Positions 3,285 to 48,919 are shown, counted from the stretch's first letter. The stretch: 51,677 bases of DNA from a virus (IMGVR_UViG_3300036770_006530:1-51677), one strand, 5' to 3'. A program made the numbers and translations. The notes: generated by a model from the letters alone, not told the origin.

Positions 3285-3692
3285 TCACACGCGCCAAGCG
3301 CGAACCGCGTTCGCCATCGGCACCGTGACCAGCCCTTCAGGGGCCATGGCCACAGCATCGATGCCGATGCAAATACCAAGGGCCGGACCGTCATCGCCCG
3401 GCAGTTCCACGATGTCGCCCCGCTGTGCCAGCAAGGGCGCGAGCGGGGGGCCGACCCGTTTGGTCACCAGCTCTGTCAGGCAGGCACAGCCGGCCCGGCG
3501 CACGACGGCGACAGACCCCGCCACGCTGCGGTAGCGTCCCCGCAGATCCGGCACCGGGTCCGTACCTGTGGCTTCCAGGATCCAGTCCGCCGCCAGCATC
3601 CCGCAATCGGCCGTGCCAAACGCGAAGGGCACGGCCTTGCGGGCGGCTACGAAGGCGGCCAGACGTTCCGGCCAATCAGCATGCCGCGCCAT
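3285..3692 (-). CDS. Tail-associated protein, possible NlpC/P60-like (gpK position)
   Basis: ATG at 3692 overlaps the upstream stop (TGATG). It sits between distal tail genes and the J-like gene. Contains FGTADCGMLAADWI with a candidate catalytic Cys. Confidence 0.5.
   Translation of the reverse strand: MARHADWPERLAAFVAARKAVPFAFGTADCGMLAADWILEATGTDPVPDLRGRYRSVAGSVAVVRRAGCACLTELVTKRVGPPLAPLLAQRGDIVELPGDDGPALGICIGIDAVAMAPEGLVTVPMANAVRAWRV
3300..3314. repeat. Dispersed palindrome GCGAAC-N3-GTTCGC, copy 1 (spacer CGC)
   Basis: Exact arms read in the sequence. About 21 nt upstream of the J-like ATG, inside the 3' end of 3285..3692. Confidence 0.9.
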
Positions 3693-4228
3693 CACCGCCC
3701 CCACACCACATTGCGATCAGCCATCTGCGCCACATACTCCATGCCCTGATCCAGCGGATGGCGGGCCTTCTGGGCGGCATCCGTAAAGCGCAGACCCTTG
3801 GGCCGGTCCCAGTCCGCCGTGCGGCTGGTCATGGTGACGGCGATGGTGGCCGTTTCCCCCAACCGGATAGTCTGCTGATCCATCCGGCCCTTGAACACCA
3901 GCAGCGGCTCGTCGATCACCTGATGCTGTGCATCCAGCAACGCCACCCAGACATAGCCGGGGCGGCCCCGGTAATTTTCGGTCAGCGCCGCCGCCACCGC
4001 TTCGGGGTCGATACCCGACAGCGACAGGGTCAGGGGACGGGCACCCTGCCCCGGTTGATCGCGCACCGGGTCCACGCCGCCGAACGTCCCGACCCCTTCA
4101 AACACCTGCCCCAGGGCCGTGATCGGAAAAGGCGCGCTGCACAGGCGCTGCACGCCGCTGGCATAATCCAGGGCGACCAGCAGCACGGGCCGGACAATGT
4201 CCGCCTGACTATGCGCAAGGTAACTCAC
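3692..4228 (-). CDS. Minor/distal tail protein (gpL position)
   Basis: GTG start in a GTGA overlap with the upstream stop. Assigned by synteny between the tape measure and the J-like gene. Confidence 0.5.
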   Translation of the reverse strand: MSYLAHSQADIVRPVLLVALDYASGVQRLCSAPFPITALGQVFEGVGTFGGVDPVRDQPGQGARPLTLSLSGIDPEAVAAALTENYRGRPGYVWVALLDAQHQVIDEPLLVFKGRMDQQTIRLGETATIAVTMTSRTADWDRPKGLRFTDAAQKARHPLDQGMEYVAQMADRNVVWGR

Positions 4229-4848
4229 GGTATCGCCTCCACGATGGAAAGACGGGTGACGGCCTTCGGGCCCGCCGCCAGCGACAGGGCCCCCTGATCG
4301 TCATCGACAAAGCGCATGATGGCCGACGGGTTGTTGCAGACCACGGCGGCCCCCACAGCGGGCTGCCGGCGCAGCGGTGGCTCAAAAGTCATGAGTGCAA
4401 GGCCGGACCCGTTCGCCTCTACATCAGCCACCAGGATCTTCAGTTCCTGGCGATCCGTCCCCGTCACGACATGTACCAGGTCACCGATGCGCAGCGAGGT
4501 GGTGGACGGCGGCAGGCCTGCCACGCGCAGCACCGTGCTGGACACGATCTGCGACACGGTCAGGGACCCCGCCACCTCCCCGCCTGCGGGCAGGGCTGCA
4601 TGGGGCGGGGTCAGCCGGAACCGACCGGCGGCCCCGCGCAACTGCGCCACCCAGGCCGACCAGGCGCGCCACCGATCCTCCCGCATGGGTGCCATCTGCA
4701 ACGTCGCGATCCACATGGCACCCGGCAGTTCCGCCGATTGTGTGGCGCGCGACAGCGGCGAGGTGAAGGTCTGCGTGTTGGCCTGGAGATGCCAGTCAAG
4801 CGCAGTCACCCGCCCAGCCAGGGCGGGCGGAAAGGTCAGGATCGCCAT
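4225..4848 (-). CDS. Minor/distal tail protein (gpM position)
   Basis: ATG at 4848 lies 1 nt after the tape-measure stop (TGAcATG). The track ORF 4225..4920 was trimmed to MAILTFPPAL. Confidence 0.5.
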   Translation of the reverse strand: MAILTFPPALAGRVTALDWHLQANTQTFTSPLSRATQSAELPGAMWIATLQMAPMREDRWRAWSAWVAQLRGAAGRFRLTPPHAALPAGGEVAGSLTVSQIVSSTVLRVAGLPPSTTSLRIGDLVHVVTGTDRQELKILVADVEANGSGLALMTFEPPLRRQPAVGAAVVCNNPSAIMRFVDDDQGALSLAAGPKAVTRLSIVEAIP

Positions 4849-4849
4849 G

Positions 4850-6943
4850 TCACATCCCGATATTGCGCAGCTTGCCTGTGCGCTTGGCTTCAGCCAATGC
4901 GGCCACGGTACGCTGACCAAAGGTTGAGCGCATTTCGTCCACCATGGCCCGCAGCTGTGCGATTTCCGCCGCCGTGCCGCCGGAGACGGAGAGGTTAAAT
5001 TCCTGTTTCAACGCCACGCCCGTGCCACCGCCCCCGGTACTTTCCGGGGCGATGACACCGGGGCGGATGGGCATGAAGAAACCGGGCGCAGAGCTATCCT
5101 CCGCGCGGCGTTCATTGACCATGTACAGCGTGTCGGGAAACACCTGCCCGCCGGCGGCACGCGGGCCACCGGCGCGGGTCAGGCCACCGAAATCGCGGTT
5201 GCCGAAATAGCCGGCCCCCGACGTGTTGCCCTCCATGACCTTACCGGGGGTCTGACCTGCCCCCATACTGCCGACCCAGGCATTGATGCCCTGGGCGATC
5301 CAGGACCCGATGCCGCCGCCGGTGGATTGCACCATGTACATGCGGATCAGTTCGTTTGCGACATCCATGATGATGGCGCGGACGCTGTCGCCCCAGGACT
5401 GAAACCCCGCCGCCGACCGCTGCAGGTTCTCCTGCAAACTACGGTCGATGGCGTCGCCGACCCGCGTGATGTTCTGCACCTGGGCGCGGGTGTTCGCCTC
5501 GATGATGCGCTTCACATCCGCCGCCTGATCCTCCAGCATCTTGCGCTGCGGCTCGCGCAGCTTGTTCGCATACTCCATCAGCTCACGGGCTGTCTGATCC
5601 AGGCTCTCGCGGGTCGCGCGTTCCTTGTCCCATTTGTCGCTTTCGAACTCGAACGACTGGACAGCCCGGCGGAACTGCGCCTTGGCATCCTTTACAGGGT
5701 CGGCATTGGGGTCGACGTAATCGTCGGCTGGTGTGCCGCCCCATGGCTTAACGACTGAATTGCCGGTGCCCTCCGGTGGTCCGCGCAGCAGGTCAAGGCG
5801 CGCTTGGTATTGGGCGCGCAGTCGCTCAAGGTCGCGGATTTCCTCTTCCAGTGATTGCCCAAACAGGGATCTCGTCCATGCGCTCAGTTGCGCGTCACTG
5901 CCGGCGAGGCCGCCCTGCGCTTGCTTGGCTGCCCAGTCACGCGCCTTAGCGTTCAGAACGCCCAACCGTTCGTCGATCTGCGCCAGCTCGTACAGAACGC
6001 GCTGTTGCCCGATCTCACCGAAGCCCTTGTAACCATCGGCGGCAACGCGGATCCATTTGGCGAAATCTGCCGCCAGCTGCGTCGCCGCAACAATGGAGGG
6101 CGCCAGATCAACAAAGGCCTGATTGAGGTTCAGATCGATGACACGGGACAGGCTGTCCAGTTCCGCCTTGGTCGCGGTGGCCCGGCGCAGAACGCTTTCC
6201 TCAACCACCACGCCCAAGCTCTGCGCCTCTGCCCGAAAGCGGGCAAGGCCGTCAGCCCCCTGTTTCAGCAGTGCGACCAGTTTTTCGCCGCCCTGGTCGC
6301 CGAAAATCTTGTCCGCGATATAGGCTTGTTCCGCTGACGTCTTGACCTGTGAAATACGGCTGGCCACCAGCTGAAACAGGCCTGGCAGATCTTTCAGCTT
6401 CGCCTTCACTTCGTCCTGACTAATGCCCAGCTTCTTGAAGCCCTCCGCCCCCTCACCCGTGCCATCAGCCGCTTCCGCTGCGCGTATCCCCAGCTCCTTC
6501 AACGCTTCATCGGCACTTTCGGCACCGATGCCGACCCGATCCGCAGCAAAGCGCAGTTCCTGCAGGGCGTTGGTCGTAACGCCCAGACGATCAGCGGTTT
6601 TTGCGACATCTGCAAAGCTGTCCACGGCCTGCCGCGCGCGAGCGATTGCGACACCAATACCGATGCTAACCGCCCCTATGCCCGCCGCCGCGACCATCCC
6701 CGCCGGACCAATGGATGAAAGCACATTGCCGACCGGGCCCGCCCTGCCAGCCAGACCTGACAGGCCGGACTGCACTTCCTGGCTTGCCGCATTGACCGCC
6801 TTCAGGCCCCCAGAGGCGGGCTTGGCACCCTCTTCGATGCGCCGGAGGGCCGCTTGGCCATCCTTGCCGAGAGCTTCCAGGGCACGTTTCACCGTGTCCT
6901 GATCCTTGACGGACAAGCGAATGGAGAGGTTGCGTTCGGTCAT
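4850..6943 (-). CDS. Tail tape measure protein
   Basis: 697 aa with long Ala/Gly/Leu-rich helical segments, hydrophobic GIGAVSIGIGVAIA stretches and a Gly-rich C-terminus. It lies downstream of the chaperone pair. Confidence 0.85.
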   Translation of the reverse strand: MTERNLSIRLSVKDQDTVKRALEALGKDGQAALRRIEEGAKPASGGLKAVNAASQEVQSGLSGLAGRAGPVGNVLSSIGPAGMVAAAGIGAVSIGIGVAIARARQAVDSFADVAKTADRLGVTTNALQELRFAADRVGIGAESADEALKELGIRAAEAADGTGEGAEGFKKLGISQDEVKAKLKDLPGLFQLVASRISQVKTSAEQAYIADKIFGDQGGEKLVALLKQGADGLARFRAEAQSLGVVVEESVLRRATATKAELDSLSRVIDLNLNQAFVDLAPSIVAATQLAADFAKWIRVAADGYKGFGEIGQQRVLYELAQIDERLGVLNAKARDWAAKQAQGGLAGSDAQLSAWTRSLFGQSLEEEIRDLERLRAQYQARLDLLRGPPEGTGNSVVKPWGGTPADDYVDPNADPVKDAKAQFRRAVQSFEFESDKWDKERATRESLDQTARELMEYANKLREPQRKMLEDQAADVKRIIEANTRAQVQNITRVGDAIDRSLQENLQRSAAGFQSWGDSVRAIIMDVANELIRMYMVQSTGGGIGSWIAQGINAWVGSMGAGQTPGKVMEGNTSGAGYFGNRDFGGLTRAGGPRAAGGQVFPDTLYMVNERRAEDSSAPGFFMPIRPGVIAPESTGGGGTGVALKQEFNLSVSGGTAAEIAQLRAMVDEMRSTFGQRTVAALAEAKRTGKLRNIGM

Positions 6944-6960
6944 ACTTCACCCATTGTCAC

Positions 6961-6975
6961 GCGAACGCGGTTCGC
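6961..6975. repeat. Dispersed palindrome copy 2 (spacer GCG)
   Basis: Intergenic, about 17 nt upstream of the tape-measure ATG (minus) and 45 nt upstream of the 7020 ATG (plus). Confidence 0.9.
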
Positions 6976-7019
6976 GCACGATTGCCCTAAGTGGTATGGG
7001 CGGGAGAAAGGCGCAGACG

Positions 7020-7313
7020 ATGACATTTATCTTGCTGCTATTTGTTACCATCACCTGTGGTGCCTATGCGCAAACAGCCAAGGGGCGCACTGGTGCCCTT
7101 TGGGGGGTAATCACTTTCATACTGGGCCTGATCTGGTGGGGCTTCCTTAGCGCTGTGACCTCGCTGCAAGCCCATGTGTTTGCCGGAATTGACGAAACGG
7201 CGATGTCCTTTGCCATGGCGCTGGTTGTCAATGTTCCGCTCTGGCTACTCATGGCCGTTATTGTGGCCACCCTTCCCAAACGTGGGCACGCTTCCCGCGA
7301 CACCCCCCGTTGA
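7020..7313 (+). CDS. Small integral membrane protein (about 3 hydrophobic helices), first gene of a reverse-oriented cassette
   Basis: ATG at 7020 preceded by GGGAGAAAGG. Hydrophobic stretches include FILLLFVTITCGAY, LWGVITFILGLIWWGFLSAV and LVVNVPLWLLMAVIVATL. The local sequence is visibly less GC-rich. Confidence 0.55.
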   Translation: MTFILLLFVTITCGAYAQTAKGRTGALWGVITFILGLIWWGFLSAVTSLQAHVFAGIDETAMSFAMALVVNVPLWLLMAVIVATLPKRGHASRDTPR

Positions 7314-7324
7314 TAGAGGCGTCT

Positions 7325-8098
7325 ATGTCAGGTCTGATCGTCTTCTGTCTTGTCATGGTTGTGGTCGTGTTCTTTGTCGCGGGGCCGGGTCGGCGCAGCC
7401 ACGAAGCCCCGGTAAAGAGAGACCCCATCAGCGACAGGGCCAAGGCCAGCATGGGCAAGGTCCTGCTGGACGGGCTTTCCTTGCAATGGAACATCCTTTA
7501 CCGGGACAGCAAGGGCGACCTTGTTGCCCGCGACATCACCGTCCGAGCGTTCATCGGTCGCAAGATTCCTTACTATGCGCAGGCGTTCTGCCATCTTCGG
7601 CAAGAAGAACGGCAATTCCAGTTCGACCGGATGGAGCGTGTCACCGACAAAGGGACGGGGCGGACAATCCGGTATCCGGGGGAATATGCCCGGTCCTATT
7701 GGGATGAAGCGCGTGGATACCTGAAAGCTGGCTCCACCTATCAGCGATACCTTGCACCACCTCCACCACCGCCGCCCCCACCACCGCCGCCACCCGTCAC
7801 GGTAGCCCATCTGTTAGATCCTGCAAGGCGGATCGGTATCCGGTGGGAGGAGGTGGATTTCACAGTGGAGGTAGCAGAGCACGGGTTGGTAAAGGATCGA
7901 CCTTATATCCGGGGCTGGGCAAAGCGGGCAGCGTTGGAGGGTAAACGGGCATGGTCCGGCAATAAGACGTTTGCCCTTCATCAACCGCACAGCCTGTTCG
8001 ATGCCGACACTGGGGAGGCCATTGCCAGCCTTGCCGACTGGTTGCGGACGGCTGAAGATCGGCCCGCTGGCGAAGGCTACCCGCCAGCATCATCCTGA
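7325..8098 (+). CDS. Membrane-anchored protein with two WYL-like beta-rich modules joined by a 13-proline linker
   Basis: ATG at 7325 with GAGG 6 nt upstream. N-terminal TM segment LIVFCLVMVVVVFFVAG. WYL-like signature YYAQAFCHLRQEERQFQFDRMERV. 13 consecutive Pro codons at 7757..7795. A second module reads YIRGWAKR...KTFALHQPHSLFD. Confidence 0.6.
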   Translation: MSGLIVFCLVMVVVVFFVAGPGRRSHEAPVKRDPISDRAKASMGKVLLDGLSLQWNILYRDSKGDLVARDITVRAFIGRKIPYYAQAFCHLRQEERQFQFDRMERVTDKGTGRTIRYPGEYARSYWDEARGYLKAGSTYQRYLAPPPPPPPPPPPPPVTVAHLLDPARRIGIRWEEVDFTVEVAEHGLVKDRPYIRGWAKRAALEGKRAWSGNKTFALHQPHSLFDADTGEAIASLADWLRTAEDRPAGEGYPPASS

Positions 8099-8451
8099 CG
8101 TTCAGACGCCTTCTCCAGCACGGCCTGCACCACCGGCCCCTCTGCGGCCTGGGCCAGCACCTTCACGGCATCGGCATCGATGTCCGCCGGCAGACGGGCC
8201 AGCAGCTGCGGCAGGTCCAAACCCGTGACTGTCCCGCCCATGCCGGCACGCAGCCAGCAGCCGGGCGATTGCAGGGCGGCATCCAGGGCGTGCCCCTCGA
8301 TGCTGGTCGGTGCCAGATCGATGCGGGGGCAGCGTTCGCCCTTGACCGTTCTGCCCCCATCCGCGCAGGGCGCGCCTTCATCCCGGCAGGATTTGCAGTA
8401 ATTGGCGCCGCCCCTTATGTCCCAGGCGAGGCGACGCCCGATGCGTTTCCC
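8077..8451 (-). CDS. T-like extension of the tail assembly chaperone, reached by a -1 frameshift (GT fusion spans 8077..8876)
   Basis: The -1 frame is open from the slippery site to the TAG at 8079..8077 and has no start codon of its own. It shows GC3-rich codon usage. Translation reads GGKRIGRRLAWDIRGGANYCKSCRDEGAPCADGG...VLEKASERQDDAGG. Confidence 0.7.
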   Translation of the reverse strand, partial: GKRIGRRLAWDIRGGANYCKSCRDEGAPCADGGRTVKGERCPRIDLAPTSIEGHALDAALQSPGCWLRAGMGGTVTGLDLPQLLARLPADIDADAVKVLAQAAEGPVVQAVLEKASERQDDAGG

Positions 8452-9829: not shown

Positions 9830-9840
9830 CATCATCTCCT

Positions 9841-10278
9841 TCAGGCGCGGGTGAACCCCAGCGCATCGGTGGTGGCAAAATAGAAAGCCACGGGCACCAT
9901 GGCCTGGCGTTCCGTGTGGTTGCCTTCGACAGGGTCTTCGGCAATGTCCGTCAGCGGCTCCATCTCCGCGTAATCGACAGTGCCGCCCATGGTGGGATCG
10001 CCGCTGATCAGTGTGGCGACAGCGGATAACAGGCCATCGGTGGTGGCGCGGCGACCGGTCCCGGCGGCCCGAATTTCGATCTCCGCAACCCATCGCCAAT
10101 GGTAAGTGCGGGGCGAAAGGCTTTCTTCTTCCACTTGGCCATCGCCATCAAACAGCAGCACGGCCCCGGCGGCGGTGAGCGTGATCGGTTTGTCCGGTTC
10201 GCGCTTCACCGTGGCGAGCGGGATGGTTTGCAGGTGCTGGTGCAACCGCTCCAGCCCGGCATCAATGACGCGCGGCAT
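9841..10278 (-). CDS. Tail completion / tail terminator-like protein
   Basis: ATG at 10278 in a TGAcATG junction. 145 aa. Assigned by synteny between the neck and tube genes. Confidence 0.45.
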   Translation of the reverse strand: MPRVIDAGLERLHQHLQTIPLATVKREPDKPITLTAAGAVLLFDGDGQVEEESLSPRTYHWRWVAEIEIRAAGTGRRATTDGLLSAVATLISGDPTMGGTVDYAEMEPLTDIAEDPVEGNHTERQAMVPVAFYFATTDALGFTRA

Positions 10279-11355: not shown

Positions 11356-11370
11356 GCGAACCACGTTCGC
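11356..11370. repeat. Dispersed palindrome copy 3 (spacer CAC)
   Basis: Ends 1 nt upstream of the ATG of 11034..11354. Confidence 0.9.
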
Positions 11371-16685: not shown

Positions 16686-18713
16686 TCAGGCGAAGCGGGC
16701 AGCCAGCCGCGCCAGTCGTTCCTGTTCAGCTTTCGCCGGATCGGGCGGCTGGCGAACCGCGTTCGCAGGCAGCGCATCCACCCCGGCCTTGATCGCGGCG
16801 TCGCGCTCGCCCGTGGCAGCCAGCACCGCGCCGGCGGTGCTGGTGACGGCTTCCATCATGTCCAGCAGGTCCATCGTGCCGGCCTCTGGTGGAGCGTCGC
16901 GCTCCACCTCCAGCCGGTCCCAGTCGGTTTCCTCGAACTGCCTCCAGCCCAGCTTGTGGGCCAGCGCCTCGGAGTAAACCATCGTGTCCAGGGCTTCGTT
17001 CGGCTTTTTGCCTGGGTTCTTCCAGACATAGACCGTGAAGCCATCGCGCCGGATCTCCGGCACGCGCCGTTCGGCGGTCAGCTGGTCAAAATAGCCGTCC
17101 GGCAGGTCGGTGCAGAAATCGACATAGCCAATGGAAAGCGGGTCGGATTTGGACAGGTACTTGTAGAGGCTGGCCTTGATCTGGCTCACGCCCACATTGA
17201 AGAAATTCTTGGCATAGCGCTTGACCTTGCCGTCGCGCCCCCGGTCCTTGCGGATCAGGGCCAGGGGTGGGGCAGCATCGCCCTTGTCACCGCGCAGCAT
17301 GAGGACGCGGCCTGGATGCTTGCGCACCCAGTCATAGACATCTTCGGTGTGGTAGTTACCATCGATGCCCGCCAGATCCAGGCCGCGCTTGCGCGCATTG
17401 GGCAGGCGCCATTGCCGCTTGATCAGGGCATCCAGCGCCTTGCGGGTATCATCCTCCCCGATGAAGCCTTCGACGACGCCATGATCAACCACGGCGCGGC
17501 GCTTGCCCCGGCCATAGGCCACGGCCTGCCATTCGACGCGGTCGCCCTGACAGTCGGCCGCCAGCACCAGCAGCGGATGGCCAAACGGAATGATACCGCG
17601 ACGGCGTGACGATTGGCGCGCCCTGTCGCGCAGCTGTTCAGCGGGCGGGGCCTCGCCCTGGATATCGTAAGCCAGCCCGATCCAGTCGTTGAAGAACCCC
17701 TGTTCCGCCGCCGGGTCGCCCTTGACCTGGAACCATTTGCGCGCGATGTCGGCCCAGGTTTTCAGCGGGCTGTAGGCCGTCCAGAGATAGAGTCCGACGA
17801 CGACGGCCAGGACATTCTTGGCCACCCACCGCCCGGCCTTGTTCATGGTGTAGCGGTGATGCTCGTCGATCCGCTTGCCGCAGTCGGGTGACGTGCAGGT
17901 GAAATGCGCGTCTTCTGGATGGGCCTCATCCAGGTTGGCCGCCATGTTCTCCCATTCCAGGGCCTGTAGGTGGCCGCAATGCGGACAGGGGACGTGGTAG
18001 CTTTCCTGTGTGGACTGGTCATACCGCTTGGAAATGCGGCAATTGTCCTTGATCAGCGGGGTGCCGATCTTCACGACCTTGCGGTCGGCAAAGGCGCTGG
18101 ACCGGCTATCGGCCTGCACCTCCGGATCGCCGCCGTCGTTCGTGCTCCATTTCGAGAGATCGTCCTGGACCTGGATACGGACGGACAACATCGACAGGGA
18201 GGCCTCGGACGAGGCGCCCGAGATTTGCAGCCACGCGCGACCGTCCTTGGTTTCCTGGTACAGGTTGGCCGCACCTGCCTCCCGCTTGACGATGGTCGGC
18301 AGGATGGCGGCCAGGGCCGTGGTGGACTTGATGAAGGGCCGCCATTTCTGACGCGCCCACCGCTTGGCGTTACCCTCCGTCGGGTGCAGGTAGAGGATGT
18401 TTTCGCGGCCCCAGTCCAGATAGGCGCCACATAGGATCTGGGCGATCAGCGTGCCGCCCAGCTGGGCCGATTTCTTCAGGACGATGTCGTTGGCCGGGTG
18501 ATCCGGCGCGCAGACCTCAAACAGCCGGTTGAAGAAGGGGAAGCGGTCGGGATCGTAAGGGCCGGGAAACTGTGACTGCCCCTTGTCCAGCTCCACATTC
18601 TTGACCGCCCAGGCCCGCATATCCATGGGTGGCGGTACGTCCAGCACCTCCGACAGGACCGATGCGGACAGATGCTCCGGACTGGCCAAGTATGAGAAGC
18701 CGTCCAGCGGCAT
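16686..18713 (-). CDS. Terminase large subunit, GpA-like
   Basis: 675 aa. Contains the zinc-finger-like motif HVPCPHCGHLQALEWENM...FTCTSPDCG and has the size typical of lambda GpA-type terminases. Confidence 0.85.
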   Translation of the reverse strand: MPLDGFSYLASPEHLSASVLSEVLDVPPPMDMRAWAVKNVELDKGQSQFPGPYDPDRFPFFNRLFEVCAPDHPANDIVLKKSAQLGGTLIAQILCGAYLDWGRENILYLHPTEGNAKRWARQKWRPFIKSTTALAAILPTIVKREAGAANLYQETKDGRAWLQISGASSEASLSMLSVRIQVQDDLSKWSTNDGGDPEVQADSRSSAFADRKVVKIGTPLIKDNCRISKRYDQSTQESYHVPCPHCGHLQALEWENMAANLDEAHPEDAHFTCTSPDCGKRIDEHHRYTMNKAGRWVAKNVLAVVVGLYLWTAYSPLKTWADIARKWFQVKGDPAAEQGFFNDWIGLAYDIQGEAPPAEQLRDRARQSSRRRGIIPFGHPLLVLAADCQGDRVEWQAVAYGRGKRRAVVDHGVVEGFIGEDDTRKALDALIKRQWRLPNARKRGLDLAGIDGNYHTEDVYDWVRKHPGRVLMLRGDKGDAAPPLALIRKDRGRDGKVKRYAKNFFNVGVSQIKASLYKYLSKSDPLSIGYVDFCTDLPDGYFDQLTAERRVPEIRRDGFTVYVWKNPGKKPNEALDTMVYSEALAHKLGWRQFEETDWDRLEVERDAPPEAGTMDLLDMMEAVTSTAGAVLAATGERDAAIKAGVDALPANAVRQPPDPAKAEQERLARLAARFA
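16752..16766. repeat. Dispersed palindrome copy 4 (spacer CGC)
   Basis: Inside the last codons of the large terminase, about 68 nt upstream of the gpW-like ATG. Confidence 0.9.
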
Positions 18714-19779: not shown

Positions 19780-19794
19780 CCGAACCCGGTTCGC
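19780..19794. repeat. Dispersed palindrome copy 5 (imperfect left arm CCGAAC, spacer CCG)
   Basis: Intergenic, with one mismatch to the consensus. Confidence 0.7.
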
Positions 19795-20962: not shown

Positions 20963-20977
20963 GCGAACGCCGTTCGC
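20963..20977. repeat. Dispersed palindrome copy 6 (spacer GCC)
   Basis: About 19 nt beyond the helicase stop, at the edge of the CGTAAGG array. Confidence 0.9.
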
Positions 20978-25040: not shown

Positions 25041-25055
25041 GCGAACTCGGTTCGC
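25041..25055. repeat. Dispersed palindrome copy 7 (spacer TCG)
   Basis: About 56 nt upstream of the PrimPol ATG, in the divergent region shared with hicAB. Confidence 0.9.
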
Positions 25056-26763: not shown

Positions 26764-27083
26764 GCGGCCACCTCGCGAACCGGGTTCGCACGCAGTCCCA
26801 GCGCATGCGCCACGATGCCGGCACCCGACAGTTCAACCGTCCGCGCCACGCGCAACAGGGCCAGGGTCAGGGGGTGCATGTCCGCCGGCAAGTGATCCAG
26901 CGCGTCGAGGGGGAAGCCGCGCCGGATCAGCCCGTCCGCCGCCATGCCGGCGACAATCAGCGCGACAGGGGCCGTGTCCGGCAGATGCAGACCGACAGCG
27001 CCGGTCAGACCGACATGCACCATGACGGGCCAGTCCTGCCCGTCATGGTCGATGCGGCTGGTAAGCGGGATCGTCGCCATCAC
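26760..27083 (-). CDS. Hypothetical protein
   Basis: 107 aa, translationally coupled within the leftward operon. Confidence 0.45.
   Translation of the reverse strand: MMATIPLTSRIDHDGQDWPVMVHVGLTGAVGLHLPDTAPVALIVAGMAADGLIRRGFPLDALDHLPADMHPLTLALLRVARTVELSGAGIVAHALGLRANPVREVAA
26775..26789. repeat. Dispersed palindrome copy 8 (spacer CGG)
   Basis: About 11 nt upstream of the methyltransferase ATG. Confidence 0.9.
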
Positions 27084-30353: not shown

Positions 30354-30368
30354 GCGAACGCGGTTCGC
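30354..30368. repeat. Dispersed palindrome copy 9 (spacer GCG)
   Basis: About 18 nt upstream of the ATG at 30387. Confidence 0.9.
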
Positions 30369-31695: not shown

Positions 31696-34296
31696 ATGGC
31701 CAACGCAGCCGTTAAACAGGACCCTGCCGCCCTTGTGGCCGAAGCCATTACCGATCTCCAGCGTGTTGCCGATGCCGCCGCCACCCTGACGGAACCGCGC
31801 GCTGGTGAGACGAAGGGCGACTATGTCCGCCGCATGCGCCAGGAACGGGGCATGTCGGCCAAACAGTTCGCGACCGCCGCCAGCATCACGGCCAAACAGG
31901 CAGGCCAGGCCGAAAGCGACCCTGACAAGTTGGGCAACCTGAATGACTGGCTTCGAATTGAACGCACCCTGGACATCCCGACCTACACCCTGTCCCATTG
32001 GGGTCAGGCGAAACCCGACAAGCCCGACAACGCCTTCGGTCGCGCCAAAGACAAGCCCCATGAAGGCGAAACGCGTGGCGACTATCTCCAGCGCATCCTG
32101 ACCCTGCGTGAAATGGATACCGAACAGCTGGCGGATATGCTGGTCCTGGATCCGGACGAGGTGCGCCAGGCGGTGGAAGAGCCGTGGCGGCACCTCTATG
32201 GCCAGGATGTGTTGTGGGAGGCGATTGCCACCGGCCTGAACCTGCCGGTGGATTACATCCTGTCCACACCGGTTCATGCCCCGGTGGCGGACCTCTCCCC
32301 CACGATGGATCGCGACGCGTCCGCCACGCCGGCCGACGCGGCACCGATGCCAACGGCAGAGAATGGCGCCGTCATTGCCTTGGCTGTCGATCAGATCAAG
32401 CCGCAGAACTATCGCCGGACCTTTTCAACGGCCTCGCTGACGGAGCTGGCGCAAAGTCTTGCCGCACAGGGGCAGCTGCAACCCGTTCTGGTGCGCCCTG
32501 CCCCCGGCCATTGGGCGTTGATCGCCGGCGAACGCCGGTGGCGCGCGGCGCAGCTGGGGATCGAACAGGGCATCCTGCCCGCCACCTTCACCCTGAATGC
32601 CACCGTCCGCACCGACATCGATGCCGACGCGCATGTCTTGGCCAGCTTGGTCGAAAACCTTCAGCGCGAAGACGTACCCCCGCTGGAGGAGGCCGAAGCC
32701 CTGGCCCTGGCCCGCAAGCGGTGGAGCGCGACAGAGATCGCCAAGGCCATCAGCAAGACGCCGCGCTTCATCCAGCAGCGGCTGGCCCTGGTGGAGAAAC
32801 TGTCCGGCCCGACCAAACAGGCTTTGGCCGATGGCGACATCACGGTAACCTTTGCCCGCCTCCTGGCTCGCGTAGGCCCTGCGACACAGGCCGAATTGCT
32901 GGTGGAAATCCGCCGCGGATATTTCGGTACGGCAAAGCAGCTGGAGGAACGCATCCAGCGCCTGACCTTCGATCCCGATAAGGCCATCTTCAGTCCGCTG
33001 CTCTATAACGGACCAACCATCACCGACGAAGATAACAAGCTCTGGTACACCGACCTTGGGCTGGTGAAGAAACTTCAACTCGAAGCGGCCAAAGACAAGG
33101 CGGCCGAGCTCCGGCAACAGGGCTATGGCTATGTAGAGGTCATTGAGGGCGGGCACTTTAGCGCCGTCGATGGCGGTTACTACATGCAAGAGCGGAACCT
33201 GACCATTCGCAAGGGCGACCGCCCCTTGCCCGCCGGCGCCCACCGCGCCGCCATCATCGCCATCAAGAATGACCTGTCGGTGGAAATCCACGCGAACCTG
33301 GTTCGCACGGACACGAAGCCCACCTCGCCCAAGGCCAAGGCCGCCGCCGCTGGCACCATCGTTGACCCGTCACAGTTGGTGGGCGAAGGACAGAGGCTCT
33401 ACGCGGAAAAGGCCCGCACCCGCGCCTTGCAGGCCGCGATCATGCGCGATGAACAGGCCCAGATGGCCGTGGTGGCCATCGGCATGTTGCAGAAGGCCAG
33501 CTGGGGTCAGCCCATCAGCTTTCGCGATGAACATTGGCCTCCACACCGCCTGACGGTTCTGCCGGCTTTAAGCGAACAGTTGCAGGAGGTGTTGGACACC
33601 TATCCCGGACTGTTGGCGGACCTGACAAAGGAACCGCGCGGCGGCGTTGGCGACCGCCTGGATAAGGCTGAACACCCGCAGGTGGTCCTGTGGCACACAC
33701 TGATGACCATGGAGTATGAGGACCTGGTCGCGCTGATCGGGCTGTTGGCCGCCGCCCGCGTCATGGCCGGCAATGGCGGTTTTGAGTTGGGCGAACAGGA
33801 CCTCTGCATCGCCATGGCCGACAGCCTGAACGTCCAGATGGACGTCAAATGGCAGATCGATGCCGAATACCTGTCGACCCTGAAGAAGCCGCAGCTGATC
33901 GCGCTGGCCCATGCCATCGGCATGTTCACCATGGCCCGGCAGATGGCAGACGGCGCCAAGAAGGAACACACGCAGCGCGGGGCCTTCACCGGCCTGAAGA
34001 TGGCCGCAATGGCCGCCGCCATCCTGGATTATGTGCAGACCCACAATATCCGCTATGTCCCGCCGGAGCTGCGCTTCCTGCGCAAGGATGAAGCGGTAGA
34101 GCGTACCCGCGCCGAACTCGCCGATGGCGCTCCATGCAGCTGGATTGAGAATGGCCCCGCCGATCCCGCCCCACCCCATCCGGCCTGGGCACGCCAGCCG
34201 ACGGCGCCGCCGCCACTGACCCCGACAGAACCCGACGATGACGCCGGCGACGACGATGGCGACGTCGAAGATCTCGACACCGACGAAGCCGCCTGA
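31696..34296 (+). CDS. Large ParB/Srx N-terminal-domain protein (866 aa) with duplicated HTH-like N-terminal segments and a long uncharacterised C-terminal region
   Basis: AAGGAGG SD. ParB box LIAGERRWRAAQL and LVENLQREDV. Confidence 0.75.
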   Translation: MANAAVKQDPAALVAEAITDLQRVADAAATLTEPRAGETKGDYVRRMRQERGMSAKQFATAASITAKQAGQAESDPDKLGNLNDWLRIERTLDIPTYTLSHWGQAKPDKPDNAFGRAKDKPHEGETRGDYLQRILTLREMDTEQLADMLVLDPDEVRQAVEEPWRHLYGQDVLWEAIATGLNLPVDYILSTPVHAPVADLSPTMDRDASATPADAAPMPTAENGAVIALAVDQIKPQNYRRTFSTASLTELAQSLAAQGQLQPVLVRPAPGHWALIAGERRWRAAQLGIEQGILPATFTLNATVRTDIDADAHVLASLVENLQREDVPPLEEAEALALARKRWSATEIAKAISKTPRFIQQRLALVEKLSGPTKQALADGDITVTFARLLARVGPATQAELLVEIRRGYFGTAKQLEERIQRLTFDPDKAIFSPLLYNGPTITDEDNKLWYTDLGLVKKLQLEAAKDKAAELRQQGYGYVEVIEGGHFSAVDGGYYMQERNLTIRKGDRPLPAGAHRAAIIAIKNDLSVEIHANLVRTDTKPTSPKAKAAAAGTIVDPSQLVGEGQRLYAEKARTRALQAAIMRDEQAQMAVVAIGMLQKASWGQPISFRDEHWPPHRLTVLPALSEQLQEVLDTYPGLLADLTKEPRGGVGDRLDKAEHPQVVLWHTLMTMEYEDLVALIGLLAAARVMAGNGGFELGEQDLCIAMADSLNVQMDVKWQIDAEYLSTLKKPQLIALAHAIGMFTMARQMADGAKKEHTQRGAFTGLKMAAMAAAILDYVQTHNIRYVPPELRFLRKDEAVERTRAELADGAPCSWIENGPADPAPPHPAWARQPTAPPPLTPTEPDDDAGDDDGDVEDLDTDEAA
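33292..33306. repeat. Dispersed palindrome copy 10 (spacer CTG)
   Basis: Inside the ParB-like CDS. Confidence 0.9.
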
Positions 34297-38564: not shown

Positions 38565-39250
38565 AACGCGAACGCGGTTCGCGGACGGCGCTACCCGGAT
38601 GGCTGGCCGACGTGCCGGACACCTACTTGTCTCTCAATCGGGAGTTTCTATCCGACCTGATCCACGGGCAGATCGATATCACAGAGATCCCGATCCTCGG
38701 TCTGCACGCTCCCATGATGCTCAACGTGGCCAAGGCGCTTTTCGATGCTGCCACCGCCCAGGCAGAACAGCTGCCCTACCCCGGTCCCTGGACGCTGTAC
38801 GTCTATCATCTGGCGCACAACGATGCTGAGCGCGGCCCATGGGAAGAGCATGAAGGCCCAAGGGCCACGGAACCCGTCCCGACCTGGCTTGACCAGACGC
38901 TGAAAGACGTGGACAGGGCGGCCAACATCGCCAGCAACCGGAAGGAAGGGGTCCAGTTGCTGGCGGCCATGGGCTTCACCCGCGCTGAGGCCCGCAAATG
39001 GGGCGCACACTACAGCCGGGCGCGTGCGGCGGGGTGGGTGGCAGTAGGTCTTGTTCGGCGGGCCTTGCCGCCGGCCCCTGCGCTGGACTGGATCGACAAG
39101 TATCTGTCGGTCATCTTGGCCCTCGACCTCGACCTGTGGGGCGAAGATTACCCATGGAAGGTACCGCCCATCGATCCGGCGCTGATGTTCGAGGCCCGGC
39201 AAAAGGTCGCCCAGGCACGGGGCACGTTGGCCAGCGGCGGCAGAGCATAG
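38561..39250 (+). CDS. Hypothetical protein, last gene of the rightward operon
   Basis: 229 aa with a GGGGGAG SD. Confidence 0.5.
   Translation: MKRERGSRTALPGWLADVPDTYLSLNREFLSDLIHGQIDITEIPILGLHAPMMLNVAKALFDAATAQAEQLPYPGPWTLYVYHLAHNDAERGPWEEHEGPRATEPVPTWLDQTLKDVDRAANIASNRKEGVQLLAAMGFTRAEARKWGAHYSRARAAGWVAVGLVRRALPPAPALDWIDKYLSVILALDLDLWGEDYPWKVPPIDPALMFEARQKVAQARGTLASGGRA
38568..38582. repeat. Dispersed palindrome copy 11 (spacer GCG)
   Basis: Covers codons 3 to 8 of 38561..39250. Confidence 0.9.
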
Positions 39251-41954: not shown

Positions 41955-41969
41955 GCGAACCCCGTTCGC
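41955..41969. repeat. Dispersed palindrome copy 12 (spacer CCC)
   Basis: Intergenic, about 120 nt upstream of the resolvase ATG. Confidence 0.9.
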
Positions 41970-43291: not shown

Positions 43292-43900
43292 CTAGACGTC
43301 GATGCATTCAACGTCTTCATCATCAACCGGCGTAGCGATAGCGGTCACGGCAGAGGCCGGCGCCGTCAACCAGTCCACCTGCGCCTGCCGGCCGATCAAG
43401 ATCACGGGCATCGCCTTTGGATGATACGGACGCACCACGCTGTTGGGCTCACAGGTCAGGAACGCGAACAGCTGATGCGGGCCCGGTATCGGTGCCTTCT
43501 TCGGCCCGCGCTCGCCATCCCATGAACGCCAGATGCCGGCGAACGCGGCGGGGCGGTCGTCCGATATGTGGAACCACACTTCACGCCTGGGCGCGGCACC
43601 AGGCGCGTACTCCGCGAAGGCGGAGAAGGGGACAAGGCACCGGTTCGCAGGCCCCAGGAAGGGCCGCCAGAAGGGGCTGGAGAGGTTGCGGACATTGGTC
43701 ACCAGGTCTGTTCGGCCCGGCGCTGGAGGGAAGCCCCAGCGCATTTCCGACACCGCCAACCGACCACCCTCGCCCCGCCGGATCACCAGCCCAGGGCGGT
43801 CGGGAAACACGTCGATCCGTGTCTCGCTGAACTCCTCAAAGCCATAAACTTCGAGTGCGAGGTTGGCCTTGGAGATCGGGCCACGGTAGTGATTACACAT
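43292..43900 (-). CDS. SOS-response-associated peptidase (SRAP/YedK family)
   Basis: The MCNHYRG N-terminus with catalytic Cys2 is diagnostic. 202 aa. Confidence 0.85.
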   Translation of the reverse strand: MCNHYRGPISKANLALEVYGFEEFSETRIDVFPDRPGLVIRRGEGGRLAVSEMRWGFPPAPGRTDLVTNVRNLSSPFWRPFLGPANRCLVPFSAFAEYAPGAAPRREVWFHISDDRPAAFAGIWRSWDGERGPKKAPIPGPHQLFAFLTCEPNSVVRPYHPKAMPVILIGRQAQVDWLTAPASAVTAIATPVDDEDVECIDV

Positions 43901-44556: not shown

Positions 44557-44571
44557 GCGAACGCGGTTCGC
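44557..44571. repeat. Dispersed palindrome copy 13 (spacer GCG)
   Basis: 1 nt beyond the o-spanin stop. Confidence 0.9.
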
Positions 44572-47080: not shown

Positions 47081-47217
47081 AACGGGCTCTCCGGTTGGAT
47101 GATGCAGCGGTAGACGTCCTGATAGGGACGCTGGACGATATCGCCGTCACGCAGGCGCGGCGGGGTGGTGCAGGCCGCCAGCAGCAGCACCAGGCCCAAG
47201 CAGGCGAGCGCCTTCAC
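47056..47217 (-). CDS. 53-aa lipoprotein (not in the ORF track)
   Basis: GTG start in a GTGA overlap with the tail-collar gene stop. My translation is (M)KALACLGLVLLLAACTTPPRLRDGDIVQRPYQDVYRCIIQPESPLCPQNPAP, with lipobox LAAC. Confidence 0.5.
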   Translation of the reverse strand: MKALACLGLVLLLAACTTPPRLRDGDIVQRPYQDVYRCIIQPESPLCPQNPAP

Positions 47218-47633
47218 AGGCGCACCGCCCAACAGGTCACCGCGCGATGTACGATTATTGTCTCCTCCGGATCGGTGCCGGGGATGGGCACTACCTCCGT
47301 CTCATGCCCCCCACCGGGCACGGCGACACGCTTGCCGTCGCGGCGCGGCAAGTTGAAGGTGGTGGTGCCGTCGCCGGCACCGGCGGAGGTGCCGAAGAGC
47401 GCAAAGAGGCTGGCATAGGTGGTGCGCGACAGCTCCGCCCCGTCCAGGATACGCCAGCCGGTCGGGGGCGACGGCCCCCAGAATTCCTGGATACACAGCC
47501 GGGGGGCCACATGTTCGGCCACCTCATCCAGGGTTAGCTGGTAGGAGCCACCCCCCCGTTCGATTTCAATTTGGTCACCCCCTTGGGCACCACCCGGGGC
47601 GGGGCCAAGGTCACTGATTTTCACAGAGGACAT
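47214..47633 (-). CDS. Tail fibre protein with a phage tail-collar domain
   Basis: GGAG SD. GWRILDGAELSRTTYASLFALFGTSAGAGDGTTTFNLP is a collar-domain signature. Confidence 0.75.
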   Translation of the reverse strand: MSSVKISDLGPAPGGAQGGDQIEIERGGGSYQLTLDEVAEHVAPRLCIQEFWGPSPPTGWRILDGAELSRTTYASLFALFGTSAGAGDGTTTFNLPRRDGKRVAVPGGGHETEVVPIPGTDPEETIIVHRAVTCWAVRL

Positions 47634-47647
47634 GATATCTCCATGGG

Positions 47648-48919
47648 TCAGAAGATGCGCCGCCATCCCTGGACGGCGCGGACATAGACAGCCTGGGGCT
47701 GGGCCCAGCCCGTGGGCGTGAGCACCCGGGGCGTGATCGGCACCCATCCGCCAGCGGCGCGATAGCGCATGGAAGGCGCAAAGGCCGTGCGCGTGGCCGT
47801 CAGCCGGGCGGTGCCAACGGCTTGTGCCGCCCAGGCCCCGCCATGGCGCTGACGGGCCCGAGCGGCGAACGTGGCCGCACCATGCCCTTCGAAGGCCGCG
47901 AACGTGGTTCGCCGCCCCGCGATCATGGTGGCGCTGCCACTGGTCAGGGACAGGCTACCCCGCCGCCGCACTGTGCCAGCGGGGTGGAATTGACCCGTTG
48001 AGGCCCAGGACACCGCACCTTCCCGGCGCACTGTGCCGGCAGCGGTGCCGGTAACCGAACCCGCCGCCGCGAAGCCCCCCGCCTGTCGATGGATGGGGGC
48101 AAGGGGGCCGGCAGCCGGGGACGCCCGCGCCGACCAGGCCGCAGCCGCCCGCAGCCGGGACGGGAACGGCTGGCAGGGCGCACCCGTCACGCGCGGACGG
48201 CCATCACCGACATGCCGGGGGGCACCATCCACGACGCAGCGGGTACCGGCGCTGTTGGCGGATGCGCTGAACCCGCCCTGGATCCTGCGAACCCCGGACA
48301 GGGCCATGGCCCCGGCCGCCGATGCGGCAAAGCCGGACGGTATGCGCAGGGACGGTGTGGCACTGAACTGGCCAGACGCCGACCAGGCCAGGGATCCGGC
48401 CATTCGATGGCTGCCGCCAAGATCCTGTCCACCGCCTTGTGCCCGCCAGCACAGGCCGCTGGCGGCCCGCAGTTGGGCAGCGGGCAGGGGCGCTGGGACC
48501 CCCGTCTGCCGCCGGCCGCCATCCGTGACCTGACGCGGATCGCCCGCGCCGGTGACACGGATACCGCCAGCATTAGCGCAGGCAGCAAAGCTACCCGCCA
48601 CACGCCGGACGGCGGCGAAACTGGCATCGCCCGCCCCGGCGCCAGACCACGCCGCCATCATGCGGGCCGCCGGCACCGCCAGAAGGTGACCGGATGCCGC
48701 CGCACTGAAGCCCCCGTGATGGCTCTGGCGGACGCGGGCAACCATGGAGGTGGACGCCGCCCAGGACAGGCTTGCGACCTGCCCATGCGTGGTGGTCAGG
48801 GGCGGGGCCGCCTGCCCGGCGGCGCGCGGGCGGCCTGCCCCGTCAACACGCGGGATCCCGTCGGGCGTGATACGCCGCCGCCCACAGGCAAGCGCCTTGA
48901 ACCCGCCTGCATGGCGCAT
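47648..48919 (-). CDS. Arg/Gly/Ala-rich repeat protein of the fibre module
   Basis: 423 aa with about 11 degenerate 19-22-aa repeats (VRR.GGF.A.A.G...), three inserts of the type R.V.DG.PR.TG, and the C-terminus GGWVPITPRVLTPTGWAQPQAVYVRAVQGWRRIF. GC3-rich codons. Confidence 0.6.
   Translation of the reverse strand: MRHAGGFKALACGRRRITPDGIPRVDGAGRPRAAGQAAPPLTTTHGQVASLSWAASTSMVARVRQSHHGGFSAAASGHLLAVPAARMMAAWSGAGAGDASFAAVRRVAGSFAACANAGGIRVTGAGDPRQVTDGGRRQTGVPAPLPAAQLRAASGLCWRAQGGGQDLGGSHRMAGSLAWSASGQFSATPSLRIPSGFAASAAGAMALSGVRRIQGGFSASANSAGTRCVVDGAPRHVGDGRPRVTGAPCQPFPSRLRAAAAWSARASPAAGPLAPIHRQAGGFAAAGSVTGTAAGTVRREGAVSWASTGQFHPAGTVRRRGSLSLTSGSATMIAGRRTTFAAFEGHGAATFAARARQRHGGAWAAQAVGTARLTATRTAFAPSMRYRAAGGWVPITPRVLTPTGWAQPQAVYVRAVQGWRRIF
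47898..47912. repeat. Dispersed palindrome copy 14 (spacer GTG)
   Basis: Inside 47648..48919. Confidence 0.9.

Follow-up and report, generated by a model that had tools for sequence, protein, structure and literature searches.

Dispersed palindromes of a lambda-like phage-plasmid as probable loading sites for its own ParB-family CTPase

Introduction

Plasmid RK2 carries 12 OB sites on its 60 kb, about one per 4-5 kb. KorB of this IncP plasmid is a ParB-family CTPase, which loads as a clamp at its site, slides and acts on distant DNA (PMC11790492; PMC13584720). BisD of the Pseudomonas element ICEclc has two bisS sites and slides over ~50 kb, with BisC as its promoter-bound partner (PMC12409273). 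In the lambdoid phage-plasmid N15, the ParB-family protein SopB has four separated centromere sites, IR1-4 (PMC7205306). Orphan prophage proteins with a ParB-CTPase fold have been surveyed, yielding a catalogue of the proteins and their nucleotide binding; in the part of that survey consulted, no cognate dispersed DNA sites were found reported for such phage proteins (PMC12704722). A plasmid-style site network like that of KorB has not yet been described for tailed phages.

The DNA analysed here (the window; 51,677 nucleotides) is a complete circular lambda-like phage-plasmid of ~51.5 kb, whose circularity is supported by a 127-nt terminal overlap and which encodes RepA and a ParA ATPase. An earlier note, made from the sequence alone, had proposed that a dispersed palindrome forms an operator or centromere network in this element.

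Distribution of the palindrome

A scan of the window returned 13 perfect copies of GCGAAC-N3-GTTCGC and one copy with a single mismatch (CCGAAC arm, 19780), reproducing the number and exact coordinates given in the earlier note. Shuffles of the window, a control suggested there, held 0.00 perfect copies and 0.24 copies at one mismatch or fewer, so that none is expected by chance. Conservation is all-or-none, with 13, 1 and 5 copies at zero, one and two mismatches, respectively. When spacers of 0-11 were scanned between the arms, N3 alone occurred, and the half-site GCGAAC (28 copies, 13 inside palindromes) showed no excess by itself. The sharing of one 15-mer by six copies and of another by two was recovered when both orientations were counted: six copies have GCGAACGCGGTTCGC (four GCG and two CGC centres) and two have a GTG/CAC centre.

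Palindromic sites (no strand assigned):
Site 1, 3300..3314: GCGAACCGCGTTCGC, 21 nt before the start of the J-like tail gene (ATG 3278, minus) and within the final codons of the upstream ORF
Site 2, 6961..6975: 17 nt upstream of the tape-measure ATG (6943, minus); position kept in L002
Site 3, 11356..11370: 1 nt before the start (ATG 11354, minus) of the 106-aa head-tail gene; position kept in L002
Site 4, 16752..16766: in TerL, whose 3' tail is variable, and 68 nt before gpW starts
Site 5, 19780..19794: the one-mismatch copy, intergenic, upstream of terS
Site 6, 20963..20977: intergenic, 19 nt past the stop codon of the D5-like primase/helicase gene
Site 7, 25041..25055: at the 5' end of the PrimPol coding sequence (ATG 25080, minus), within ~13 codons of its start
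Site 8, 26775..26789: 11 nt upstream of the orf198 ATG, immediately before its Shine-Dalgarno; position kept in L001
Site 9, 30354..30368: 18 nt before the ParB operon's first gene
Site 10, 33292..33306: inside the ParB-like gene, codons ~533-537
Site 11, 38568..38582: in the ParB operon's last gene (38561-39250), at codons 3-7
Site 12, 41955..41969: intergenic, between repA and the resolvase gene
Site 13, 44557..44571: 2 nt downstream of the LysC/Rz1-like (o-spanin) stop
Site 14, 47898..47912: inside a 423-aa ORF (47648-48919, minus)

The sites occur at about one per 3.7 kb and are dispersed over the whole circle, as had been claimed, with gaps of 1.2-7.1 kb (CV 0.40) that are more even than random placement on a circle would give (P~3e-4). 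The statement that ten of the 14 lie within ~70 nt of a gene boundary also held, since eight are at most 70 nt from a start codon and two just past a stop. Seven fall within -45..+30 nt of a start (offsets -40 to +21 nt) vs 1.2 expected (P~5e-5), four of these overlapping coding sequence; the remaining seven are 68-1032 nt away.

Conservation of positions in relatives, a check set beforehand, was found at several sites. Arms at homologous positions are 92-100% conserved where flanks are 26-43% identical. Site 4 is perfect in L002 and has one mismatch in L001 (flank identity 26% and 58%, respectively), and site 5, which adjoins a conserved 21-nt block, has perfect homologous copies in both loci. 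The position of site 9 is kept in L598 and L600, though the flanks have diverged to random, and site 11 recurs in L600 at an identical position and reading frame. The ParB genes of L601, L602 and L596, like that of the window, hold intragenic copies. The orf198 product, downstream of site 8, matches part of phrog_799.

The ParB-like protein of the element

The ParB gene and the immunity-type operators:
31696..34296, plus strand: proposed reader of the sites, an 866-aa orphan ParB-CTPase by domain and fold matches
28793; 30288 and 30325: 19-bp immunity palindrome GGKRCAC-N5-GTGYMCC, at exactly the two divergent promoter regions (one copy in the first, two in the second)

Judged by motifs and domains, which include HTH_ParB, the 866-aa protein is a CTPase of the ParB/Noc/KorB type. 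It begins with two modules of XRE-type HTH (aa ~30-195) and continues with ParB_N and HTH_ParB (aa 225-425), after which come an alpha/beta domain (~430-540) and a C-terminal part of low confidence. ParB_N matches PF02195 at 2e-14 (motifs LQPVLVRP, GERRWRAA and ENLQRED), HTH_ParB matches PF17762 at 3e-8, and the TIGR00180 score is 90.9 bits vs a cut-off of 58.45. The nucleotide-binding boxes (GxxRxxA; ENxxR; box I/II/III) are intact. The best PDB matches by sequence (phmmer) and fold (Foldseek) are Spo0J, ParB, Noc and KorB, spanning both domains, and the nearest NCBIfam model is the PRTRC-system ParB of plasmids and ICEs, matched below its cut-off. Proteins of this type have a C-terminal dimerisation domain; no Pfam or PDB match was returned for aa 430-866, where the AF2 model is confident for ~430-540 alone, and the ParA-binding motif [LFI]G[KR]G[LFI] was searched for in the protein and not found.

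The gene belongs to an early-left (PL-like) operon, and site 9 lies just downstream of the two tandem immunity-type operators at 30288 and 30325. Small ORFs neighbouring ParB are not conserved, and no conserved KorA/BisC-like partner stands beside the gene. The reading module may be either the XRE or the ParB HTH, because the protein carries both kinds of DNA-binding module; the ParB of L164 is without an XRE module yet accompanied by 4 sites, which suggests the ParB HTH as the reading head.

Co-occurrence of sites and the ParB subfamily

The earlier note had named the 866-aa protein and a free FtsK-gamma protein as possible readers. Comparative genomics singles out the former as the likely one; the latter is not conserved in other motif-bearing phages. 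Two samples were used: (i) viral fragments fetched for the 15-mer alone, and (ii) 80 viral loci picked by ParB homology. ParB was the sole protein family enriched in multi-copy contigs of the first sample, present in 14 of 55 multi-copy vs 8 of 180 single-copy fragments when pooled (P=2.5e-5), and the motif was present in 5/6 of the closest loci of the second vs 1/74 others (P=1.5e-6); the association is correlative and the samples are partly phylogenetically non-independent. An '8 vs 0' co-enrichment cluster was rejected as a single-linkage artefact.

All five of the closest database homologues (5/5) stand in multi-copy arrays (L598, 3 copies; L600, 6; L601, 3+1; L602, 5+1; L599, 5 core), and relatives have 3-8 perfect sites per 12-37 kb. 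The co-occurring subfamily has the architecture XRE-HTH, ParB_N, HTH_ParB and a long C-terminus; its members are 550-870 aa long, with one or more N-terminal XRE HTH modules and a unique C-terminal region. One site is almost always found shortly upstream of the ParB gene or its operon: 1-52 nt upstream of the ParB ATG in L119, L120, L122, L123 and L602, and upstream of the operon's first gene in the window, L598 and L600. In 16 of 22 ParB-bearing fragments, the distance from a site to the estimated start of the ParB gene is at most 700 bp. Integrase-bearing prophages, L599 (in a Reyranella chromosome) and L602, carry the pair as well. Prophages D, E and G have 6-8 perfect sites each and showed no ParB in the DNA initially fetched; synteny predicted the gene just beyond it, where it was then found in G. 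Fragment coverage is incomplete, and some motif-rich contigs may truly be without ParB. Sites in D and E are separated by large gaps, unlike the even spacing in the window.

Comparison with described systems

The analogy with KorB and OB drawn in the earlier note appears apt, because the 866-aa protein has the signature of a ParB/Noc/KorB-type CTPase with HTH_ParB. As in RK2, an HTH-bearing ParB CTPase is accompanied by many near-identical dispersed palindromes on its own mobile replicon, with copies at or near gene and promoter regions, its own operon included, and at a density of similar order; site and ParB are inherited together and absent elsewhere. CTP-dependent clamp loading and sliding are proposed here by analogy. 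Unlike RK2, a conjugative plasmid, the element is a tailed temperate phage or phage-plasmid, and its 15-bp site differs from the OB core TTTAGC(G/C)GCTAAA. The phage ParB also departs from KorB in its length, N-terminal XRE HTH and long unique C-terminal region; it has neither a ParA (IncC) partner in its operon nor a ParA-binding motif, and a conserved KorA-like clamp-locking partner was not found beside it.

Like BisD, the phage protein is an orphan-like ParB-CTPase on a mobile element, with an extra domain absent from canonical ParB and parS-like palindromes inside genes; BisD acts on many promoters over tens of kb. However, the phages have 6-14 sites per 35-52 kb genome rather than two, the site sequences are unrelated, and no equivalent of the BisC that BisD needs is conserved in them. 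N15 shares a lambdoid phage-plasmid lifestyle, a ParB-family protein and several separated perfect palindromes (PMC7205306), but its type Ia SopB is encoded with SopA in one operon. Bacillus Noc (PDB 7ol9, 6y93) is among the best structure and sequence matches and is likewise a ParB paralogue without a ParA partner, with many dispersed palindromic NBS sites replicon-wide. It is, in contrast, a chromosomal Firmicute protein with a membrane-targeting helix that acts in division-site selection, and the phage ParB gave no indication of membrane binding. The 866-aa protein falls into the broad class of the surveyed orphan ParBs, which are similarly mobile-element-borne, ParB-like and without a ParA-binding motif (PMC12704722).

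Proposed mechanism

The 14 palindromes are probably parS/OB-like sites at which the ParB-family CTPase encoded by the element itself (866 aa) specifically binds and loads. That they travel with one type of ParB CTP switch across relatives points to ParB docking sites as their most likely identity. In a scheme modelled on ParB, Noc, KorB and BisD, HTH_ParB would let a dimer of the protein read the 6-N3-6 palindrome; after binding CTP, the dimer would shut as a clamp and slide along to adjacent DNA. With one site per ~3.7 kb, all 51.5 kb would be within reach of loaded clamps. The PL-like operon, the two immunity-type operators guarding its promoter and the site directly downstream suggest that ParB is probably produced once infection or induction has occurred, with feedback on the operon that encodes it. 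The output would most likely be control of phage transcription or gene starts across the genome, as with KorB or BisD. Half of the sites are no more than ~40 nt away from a start codon. Such hugging of start codons, with overlap of coding sequence, is not what a pure clamp-loading model predicts, and it could indicate an RNA-level or translation-linked role.

Alternative explanations

Partition genes outside the ParB operon:
39577-40251: parA, followed by a 104-aa ORF with a 4-nt overlap
40262-40442: array of at least 8 TTACCGGATAA repeats before parA, a type Ib layout

The palindromes could instead form a dispersed centromere, as the earlier note had considered, through which the plasmid-prophage would be segregated by the element's ParA together with the 866-aa protein, in the way of N15 SopB and IR1-4. 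In favour, this phage-plasmid encodes RepA and a ParA ATPase, the proposed reader is a true ParB, and N15 offers a precedent. This role is nevertheless improbable. The parA gene has its own 104-aa ORF and dedicated repeat array, a RepA-adjacent layout also present as parA and parG in related Acetobacteraceae plasmids, and partition is probably handled by this separate module. The 866-aa protein lies outside the parA operon and lacks the N-terminal motif by which a type I ParB stimulates its cognate ParA. The pair of ParB and sites is also not confined to extrachromosomal replicons, and no ParA was seen in the 12-22 kb fetched around ParB of the integrase prophages L599 and L602. The separate parA/104-aa ORF/parC module and the presence of the pair in these prophages thus argue for loading sites of an orphan clamp rather than centromeres.

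An RNA-level element is likewise unlikely: an mRNA hairpin with a 6-bp stem and 3-nt loop, close to ribosome-binding sites, that would affect how the message is translated or processed, or how stable it is. Cluster K mycobacteriophages have start-associated sequences (SAS) that are similarly RBS-proximal, the palindrome forms the same hairpin from either transcribed strand, a copy precedes the ParB ATG in relatives, and the proximity of 7/14 sites to start codons stands. The hairpin itself fares poorly, being weak (-5.9 kcal/mol), and the regions in context fold like shuffles (z ~0). Arm sequence is invariant: dozens of copies show not one compensatory pair change, which leaves no arm variation in which covariation could appear. 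Five sites (33292, 47898, 19780, 20963 and 44557) are far from any start, the loop triplet has no orientation bias relative to transcription, and neither even spacing nor strict co-occurrence with a DNA-binding ParB is expected of an RNA element.

It is quite unlikely that the palindrome is the recognition site of some other enzyme or process on the element that demands an exact sequence, for example a nickase, a modification enzyme, a primase or a recombination hotspot, with ParB a mere fellow traveller. Thirteen perfect copies and one with a single mismatch do look more like an enzyme site than a degenerate operator, but parS-type sites are themselves typically near-perfect. The D5-like primase and orf198 families are moderately co-enriched with the motif, yet missing from many motif-bearing loci; DUF5131 lies beside ParB elsewhere and is not conserved in the window. 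The sites show no excess of homology breakpoints (1 of 44 HSP ends vs 0.97 expected).

A host-factor binding site, or the repeat family inherited from the host genome that had been raised as an alternative, is very unlikely. The carriers all appear to be phages of high-GC Alphaproteobacteria, and CGAAC-N3-GTTCG resembles LexA-type boxes of other phyla. However, ~2.7 Mb of control DNA held 0 copies vs ~690 expected at window density, so nothing comparable to the density in the window was found in host-like or unrelated DNA. Of these controls, genome loci made up 1.36 Mb, viral loci with ParB of other types 1.23 Mb and plasmid DNA of Rhodospirillales/Acetobacteraceae 150 kb; among them were chromosomal loci from Ferrovibrio, Rhodospirillaceae and Acetobacteraceae and plasmid DNA from Magnetospirillum, Roseomonas and Rhodovastum. 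The ~4.5 kb past the integrase in L599, presumably host DNA, likewise held zero copies. Within a phage family picked by its packaging protein, the motif is confined to one clade and sister clades of the same GC have none.

Operators of a CI/Cro-type immunity repressor, in a stoperator-like, P1 C1-like or phiC31 CIR-like network, are extremely unlikely: dispersed repressor sites occur in other phages and site 9 lies in a divergent regulatory region beside HTH genes, but CI-like and HTH_31 homologues are present in L598 and L600 alone among other motif-bearing lineages, and the GCGAAC motif is not the immunity operator because a different palindrome, GGKRCAC-N5-GTGYMCC, occupies both immunity promoters and is kept beside the site in L598 and L600.

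Dispersed palindromes on a phage-plasmid

The first 127 nt of the window recur exactly at its end (51551-51677), indicating a complete circular assembly of approximately 51,550 bp; the J-like tail gene spans the circle junction. PHROG and Pfam scans of the window identify a lambda-like siphovirus, with virion genes for a GpA-type TerL, gpW, portal, protease, major capsid protein, tape measure, distal tail and J-like proteins, and further phage genes for PrimPol, a D5-like primase/helicase and TerS. Given its RepA, ParA and serine resolvase genes, and the lack of an integrase among the scanned window ORFs, the element is classed as a phage-plasmid. The plasmid features are as follows:

39266-42637: plasmid-maintenance module of lower GC (0.57-0.60), comprising parA, a 104-aa ORF, a repeat array, repA and the resolvase gene
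39577-40251, minus strand: ParA, 224 aa, overlapping the 104-aa ORF
40262-40442: parC-like array of at least eight TTACCGGATAA/TTATCCGGTAA repeats, directly upstream of parA
40500-40690 and 41621-41728: about ten RepA iterons (TTCGGGGTATCGCGCAC), on both sides of repA
40690-41616: RepA (PF10134)
41998 and 42057: 13-nt direct repeat TTGGTGCAAAAGT, ahead of the resolvase gene

RepA is closest, at 55-62% identity, to proteins encoded on Magnetospirillum, Komagataeibacter, Roseomonas and Rhodovastum plasmids, and the TerL relatives are from Rhodospirillales-like Alphaproteobacteria. Megablast of the window found no DNA-level match to GenBank phages, and scanning viral and genome contigs with TerL alone as the query recovered no relatives; those described here were found solely via a large protein database.

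A pattern search of the window recovered exactly the copies and coordinates of GCGAAC-N3-GTTCGC (15-mer form GCGAACGCGGTTCGC) claimed in the earlier note, namely 13 perfect copies and one with a single mismatch (19780). Dinucleotide-preserving shuffles yielded 0.00 perfect copies and 0.24 copies at up to one mismatch. The family is sharply bounded, with 13, 1 and 5 window copies at zero, one and two mismatches, and 3 nt is the sole spacer length present among those tried (0-11). The half-site GCGAAC is not enriched by itself (13 of its 28 window occurrences lie within the palindromes), and no sequence is conserved outside the 15 bp of the window copies. Gaps between sites range from 1.2 to 7.1 kb with a coefficient of variation of 0.40, below that of 99.97% of random placements, and half of the 14 sites lie between -45 and +30 nt of a start codon (P~5e-5).

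The motif also occurs at homologous positions in relatives with TerL proteins 91% and 76% identical to that of the window. The arms are 92-100% conserved there, whereas identity in the 36-nt flanks is only 26-43% for most comparisons; this pattern extends to the variable 3' tail of TerL.

Association of the sites with a ParB-like protein

The ORF at 31696-34296 encodes an 866-aa protein with ParB_N and HTH_ParB domains and all three nucleotide-binding boxes (LQPVLVRP, GERRWRAA and ENLQRED). Its best solved relatives, by sequence and predicted fold, are Spo0J, ParB, Noc and KorB, and among NCBIfam models it comes nearest to the PRTRC-system ParB, with a score under that model's cut-off. In the AF2 model, two XRE-type HTH modules are confidently predicted at the N-terminus, a further domain is folded at approximately residues 430-540 and the C-terminus is poorly predicted; a fold search with this model gave no match for the C-terminal half.

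31696-32280 (aa 30-195): pair of XRE-type HTH modules in tandem, forming an N-terminal fusion with the ParB core

The earlier note had proposed this protein as a possible reader of the sites, and co-occurrence in both directions of selection favours it as the putative reader. In the motif-first set, viral contigs were retrieved by exact 15-mers alone and their ORFs clustered. The ParB-like family alone showed specific enrichment in multi-copy contigs, being present in 14/55 multi-copy and 8/180 single-copy fragments (P=2.5e-5); with each fragment spanning only roughly a quarter of a phage genome, a presence of 25% is near the figure for universal presence. In the ParB-first set, comprising 80 viral loci picked by ParB homology alone, the motif accompanied five of the six nearest homologues but only 1/74 of the remainder (P=1.5e-6). 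Multi-copy arrays also surround all five of the closest homologues in a 5.8-billion-protein database: one is on the contig of the relative L002, one (L600) is a second phage-plasmid, and two belong to prophages with an integrase, of which one sits in a Reyranella chromosome. A scan of genome contigs with the ParB alignment was dominated by canonical chromosomal ParBs and served only as background DNA.

Three prophages (D, E and G) carry 6-8 perfect sites each with no ParB visible at first. Comparison of gene order with F, a sister that has ParB, put the gene immediately beyond the contig start in D and E and, for G, in a part outside the retrieved sequence, where a targeted search recovered it at the predicted place; the three were therefore dropped as counter-examples. 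In five relatives (L119, L120, L122, L123 and L602) the ParB start codon is preceded by a motif copy at a distance of 1-52 nt; in the window, L598 and L600 a copy precedes the operon's first gene.

Other candidate partners did not hold. The FtsK-gamma protein, the other possible reader named in the earlier note, is not conserved among motif-bearing relatives, nor are other small neighbours. A cluster linking orf198, the gene next to site 26775, with PrimPol (eight multi-copy versus zero single-copy) was a single-linkage chain of unrelated proteins, and DUF5131 was set aside as a coupled enzyme since the window's 408-aa ORF is unrelated to it.

The XRE modules number one or none in the ParBs of relatives. 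Four sites are nevertheless present in one relative without any (L164), an observation that points to the ParB HTH as the putative reading head. The close homologue L121 lacks the motif and carries these features:

7204-7832 and 9667-9681 of L121: an AATCCA-N3-TGGATT cluster and a GCGGAC variant

The variant, GCGGAC-N3-GTCCGC, is a single symmetric copy at the homologous position before the ParB gene, with four AATCCA-N3-TGGATT palindromes clustered about 2 kb upstream. The recognition helix reads RYVYQRLAL in L121 and RFVQQRLAL in the family, an anecdotal instance of possible co-variation between site and specificity. L121 excepted, screening more distant ParB loci de novo for other repeated palindromes yielded GC-rich noise only. 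In L599, a more distant Reyranella sp. prophage, the outermost bases of the sites vary ([G/C]CGAAC-N3-GTTCG[G/C], 2890-15620), which suggests a functional core of 13 bp, CGAAC-N3-GTTCG.

Alternative explanations

The earlier note also saw the network as a candidate partition centromere. This is unlikely, because the 866-aa protein has no ParA-binding motif ([LFI]G[KR]G[LFI]) and the ParB-site pair also occurs in integrated prophages. Moreover, parA has its own overlapping 104-aa ORF and adjacent repeat array, and the same RepA, parA and parG layout is found in related plasmids.

The sites could instead act as RNA hairpins near start codons. The seven start-proximal sites speak for such a role and are not fully accounted for by a loading-site model. 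However, the hairpin is weak, the site contexts fold no better than shuffles, the arms are invariant and show no paired changes, loop orientation is unbiased and several sites are far from any start; we regard it as unlikely.

Operators of the CI/Cro immunity repressor were rejected, as a different palindrome occupies the relevant regulatory regions and CI-like proteins are not common to the other motif-bearing lineages:

28793-28811, 30288-30306 and 30325-30343: the 19-bp palindrome GGKRCAC-N5-GTGYMCC, exactly three window copies

One copy is at the CI/early-lytic divergent region and two are in tandem before the ParB operon, an arrangement like lambda OR/OL, and the palindrome is kept beside the GCGAAC site in L598 and L600. 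These three are probably the repressor's operators, and the tandem pair suggests that the repressor controls the ParB operon, which would then be an early (PL-like) one. The integrative relatives have the ParB gene between an S24-type repressor and the integrase.

A repeat family inherited from the host, or a host-factor target, was likewise rejected. The motif is absent from three control sets, namely genome loci (1.36 Mb), viral loci carrying other ParB types (1.23 Mb) and plasmid DNA of the likely host orders (150 kb), where approximately 690 copies would be expected at the window's density, and in a phage family picked by a packaging protein it is confined to one clade. Finally, a mosaic-junction or recombination-hotspot reading failed, as homology breakpoints are not enriched at the sites.

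Proposed role of the ParB-site network

ParB-CTP switches such as KorB, BisD, VirB and Noc have lately been seen as general DNA-sliding regulators beyond chromosome segregation. What the analysis shows is the sites, how they are conserved, their co-occurrence with the protein and the protein's signature; for the ParB-CTPase of the window, we infer binding, sliding, timing and output along the following lines. Once made from the early-left operon, after infection or induction, the protein would dock as a dimer on the 15-bp palindromes, take up CTP, close into a clamp and slide. One site per ~3.7 kb would put every part of the genome within sliding reach at the ranges reported for KorB (~1.5 kb; PMC11790492) or BisD (longer than that of KorB; PMC12409273). 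The site at the 5' end of ParB's own operon suggests feedback, and the start-proximal half of the sites suggests an output acting on gene expression.

By analogy, this working mode would resemble that of KorB-OB, and BisD-bisS, Noc-NBS and N15 SopB-IR each share some traits with the network. In contrast to those systems, the present one lacks the features that tie them to ParA partners or a conserved co-regulator, and has its own site, domain architecture and type of host element. A recent survey of the ParB-CTPase fold describes prophage orphan ParBs as numerous and uncharacterised (PMC12704722), and literature searches returned no account of GCGAAC-N3-GTTCGC or of a tailed-phage ParB with a network of dispersed sites.

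One subfamily of phage orphan ParBs now has an exact 15-bp site as its candidate partner, mapped across the genome, in numerous independent phages that include a phage-plasmid and integrated prophages; this turns an uncharacterised class into a directly testable protein-site pair. If confirmed, the pairing would extend KorB-type long-range control to tailed phages, offer an orthogonal ParB/site pair for DNA labelling tools and set a 'regulator/organiser' ParB apart from a 'partition' ParB on one replicon with its own distinct partition locus. A bolder and rather unlikely reading is that an undescribed, widespread temperate-phage ParB-CTPase class with 6-14 evenly dispersed loading sites coats or condenses the entire genome soon after induction, independently of partition, as a phage-specific ParB-DNA compartment or sliding-clamp 'timer' organising replication, late transcription and packaging. 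Such a genome-wide cis/trans architecture would, if real, be a novelty among tailed phages.

Further features of the window

The D5-like primase/helicase ORF (20996-23500) shares 238 nt with that of PrimPol (23263-25080), and the D5-like gene probably begins at a more downstream position. Relatives have a DnaG-type primase in place of PrimPol, with its own intragenic motif copy. Both phage-plasmids encode an SOS-response-associated peptidase (SRAP, PF02586) near the lysis genes (window 43292-43900; L600 18859-19737). A further block is conserved near the terminase genes:

window ~19795-19830, L001 ~8960-8983 and L002 ~9010-9033: conserved ~21-nt block, ttccggggcgtttcatttggg when read on the minus strand

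In these three phages the block abuts site 19780 upstream of terS, and it may be part of the cos/terminase-binding region.
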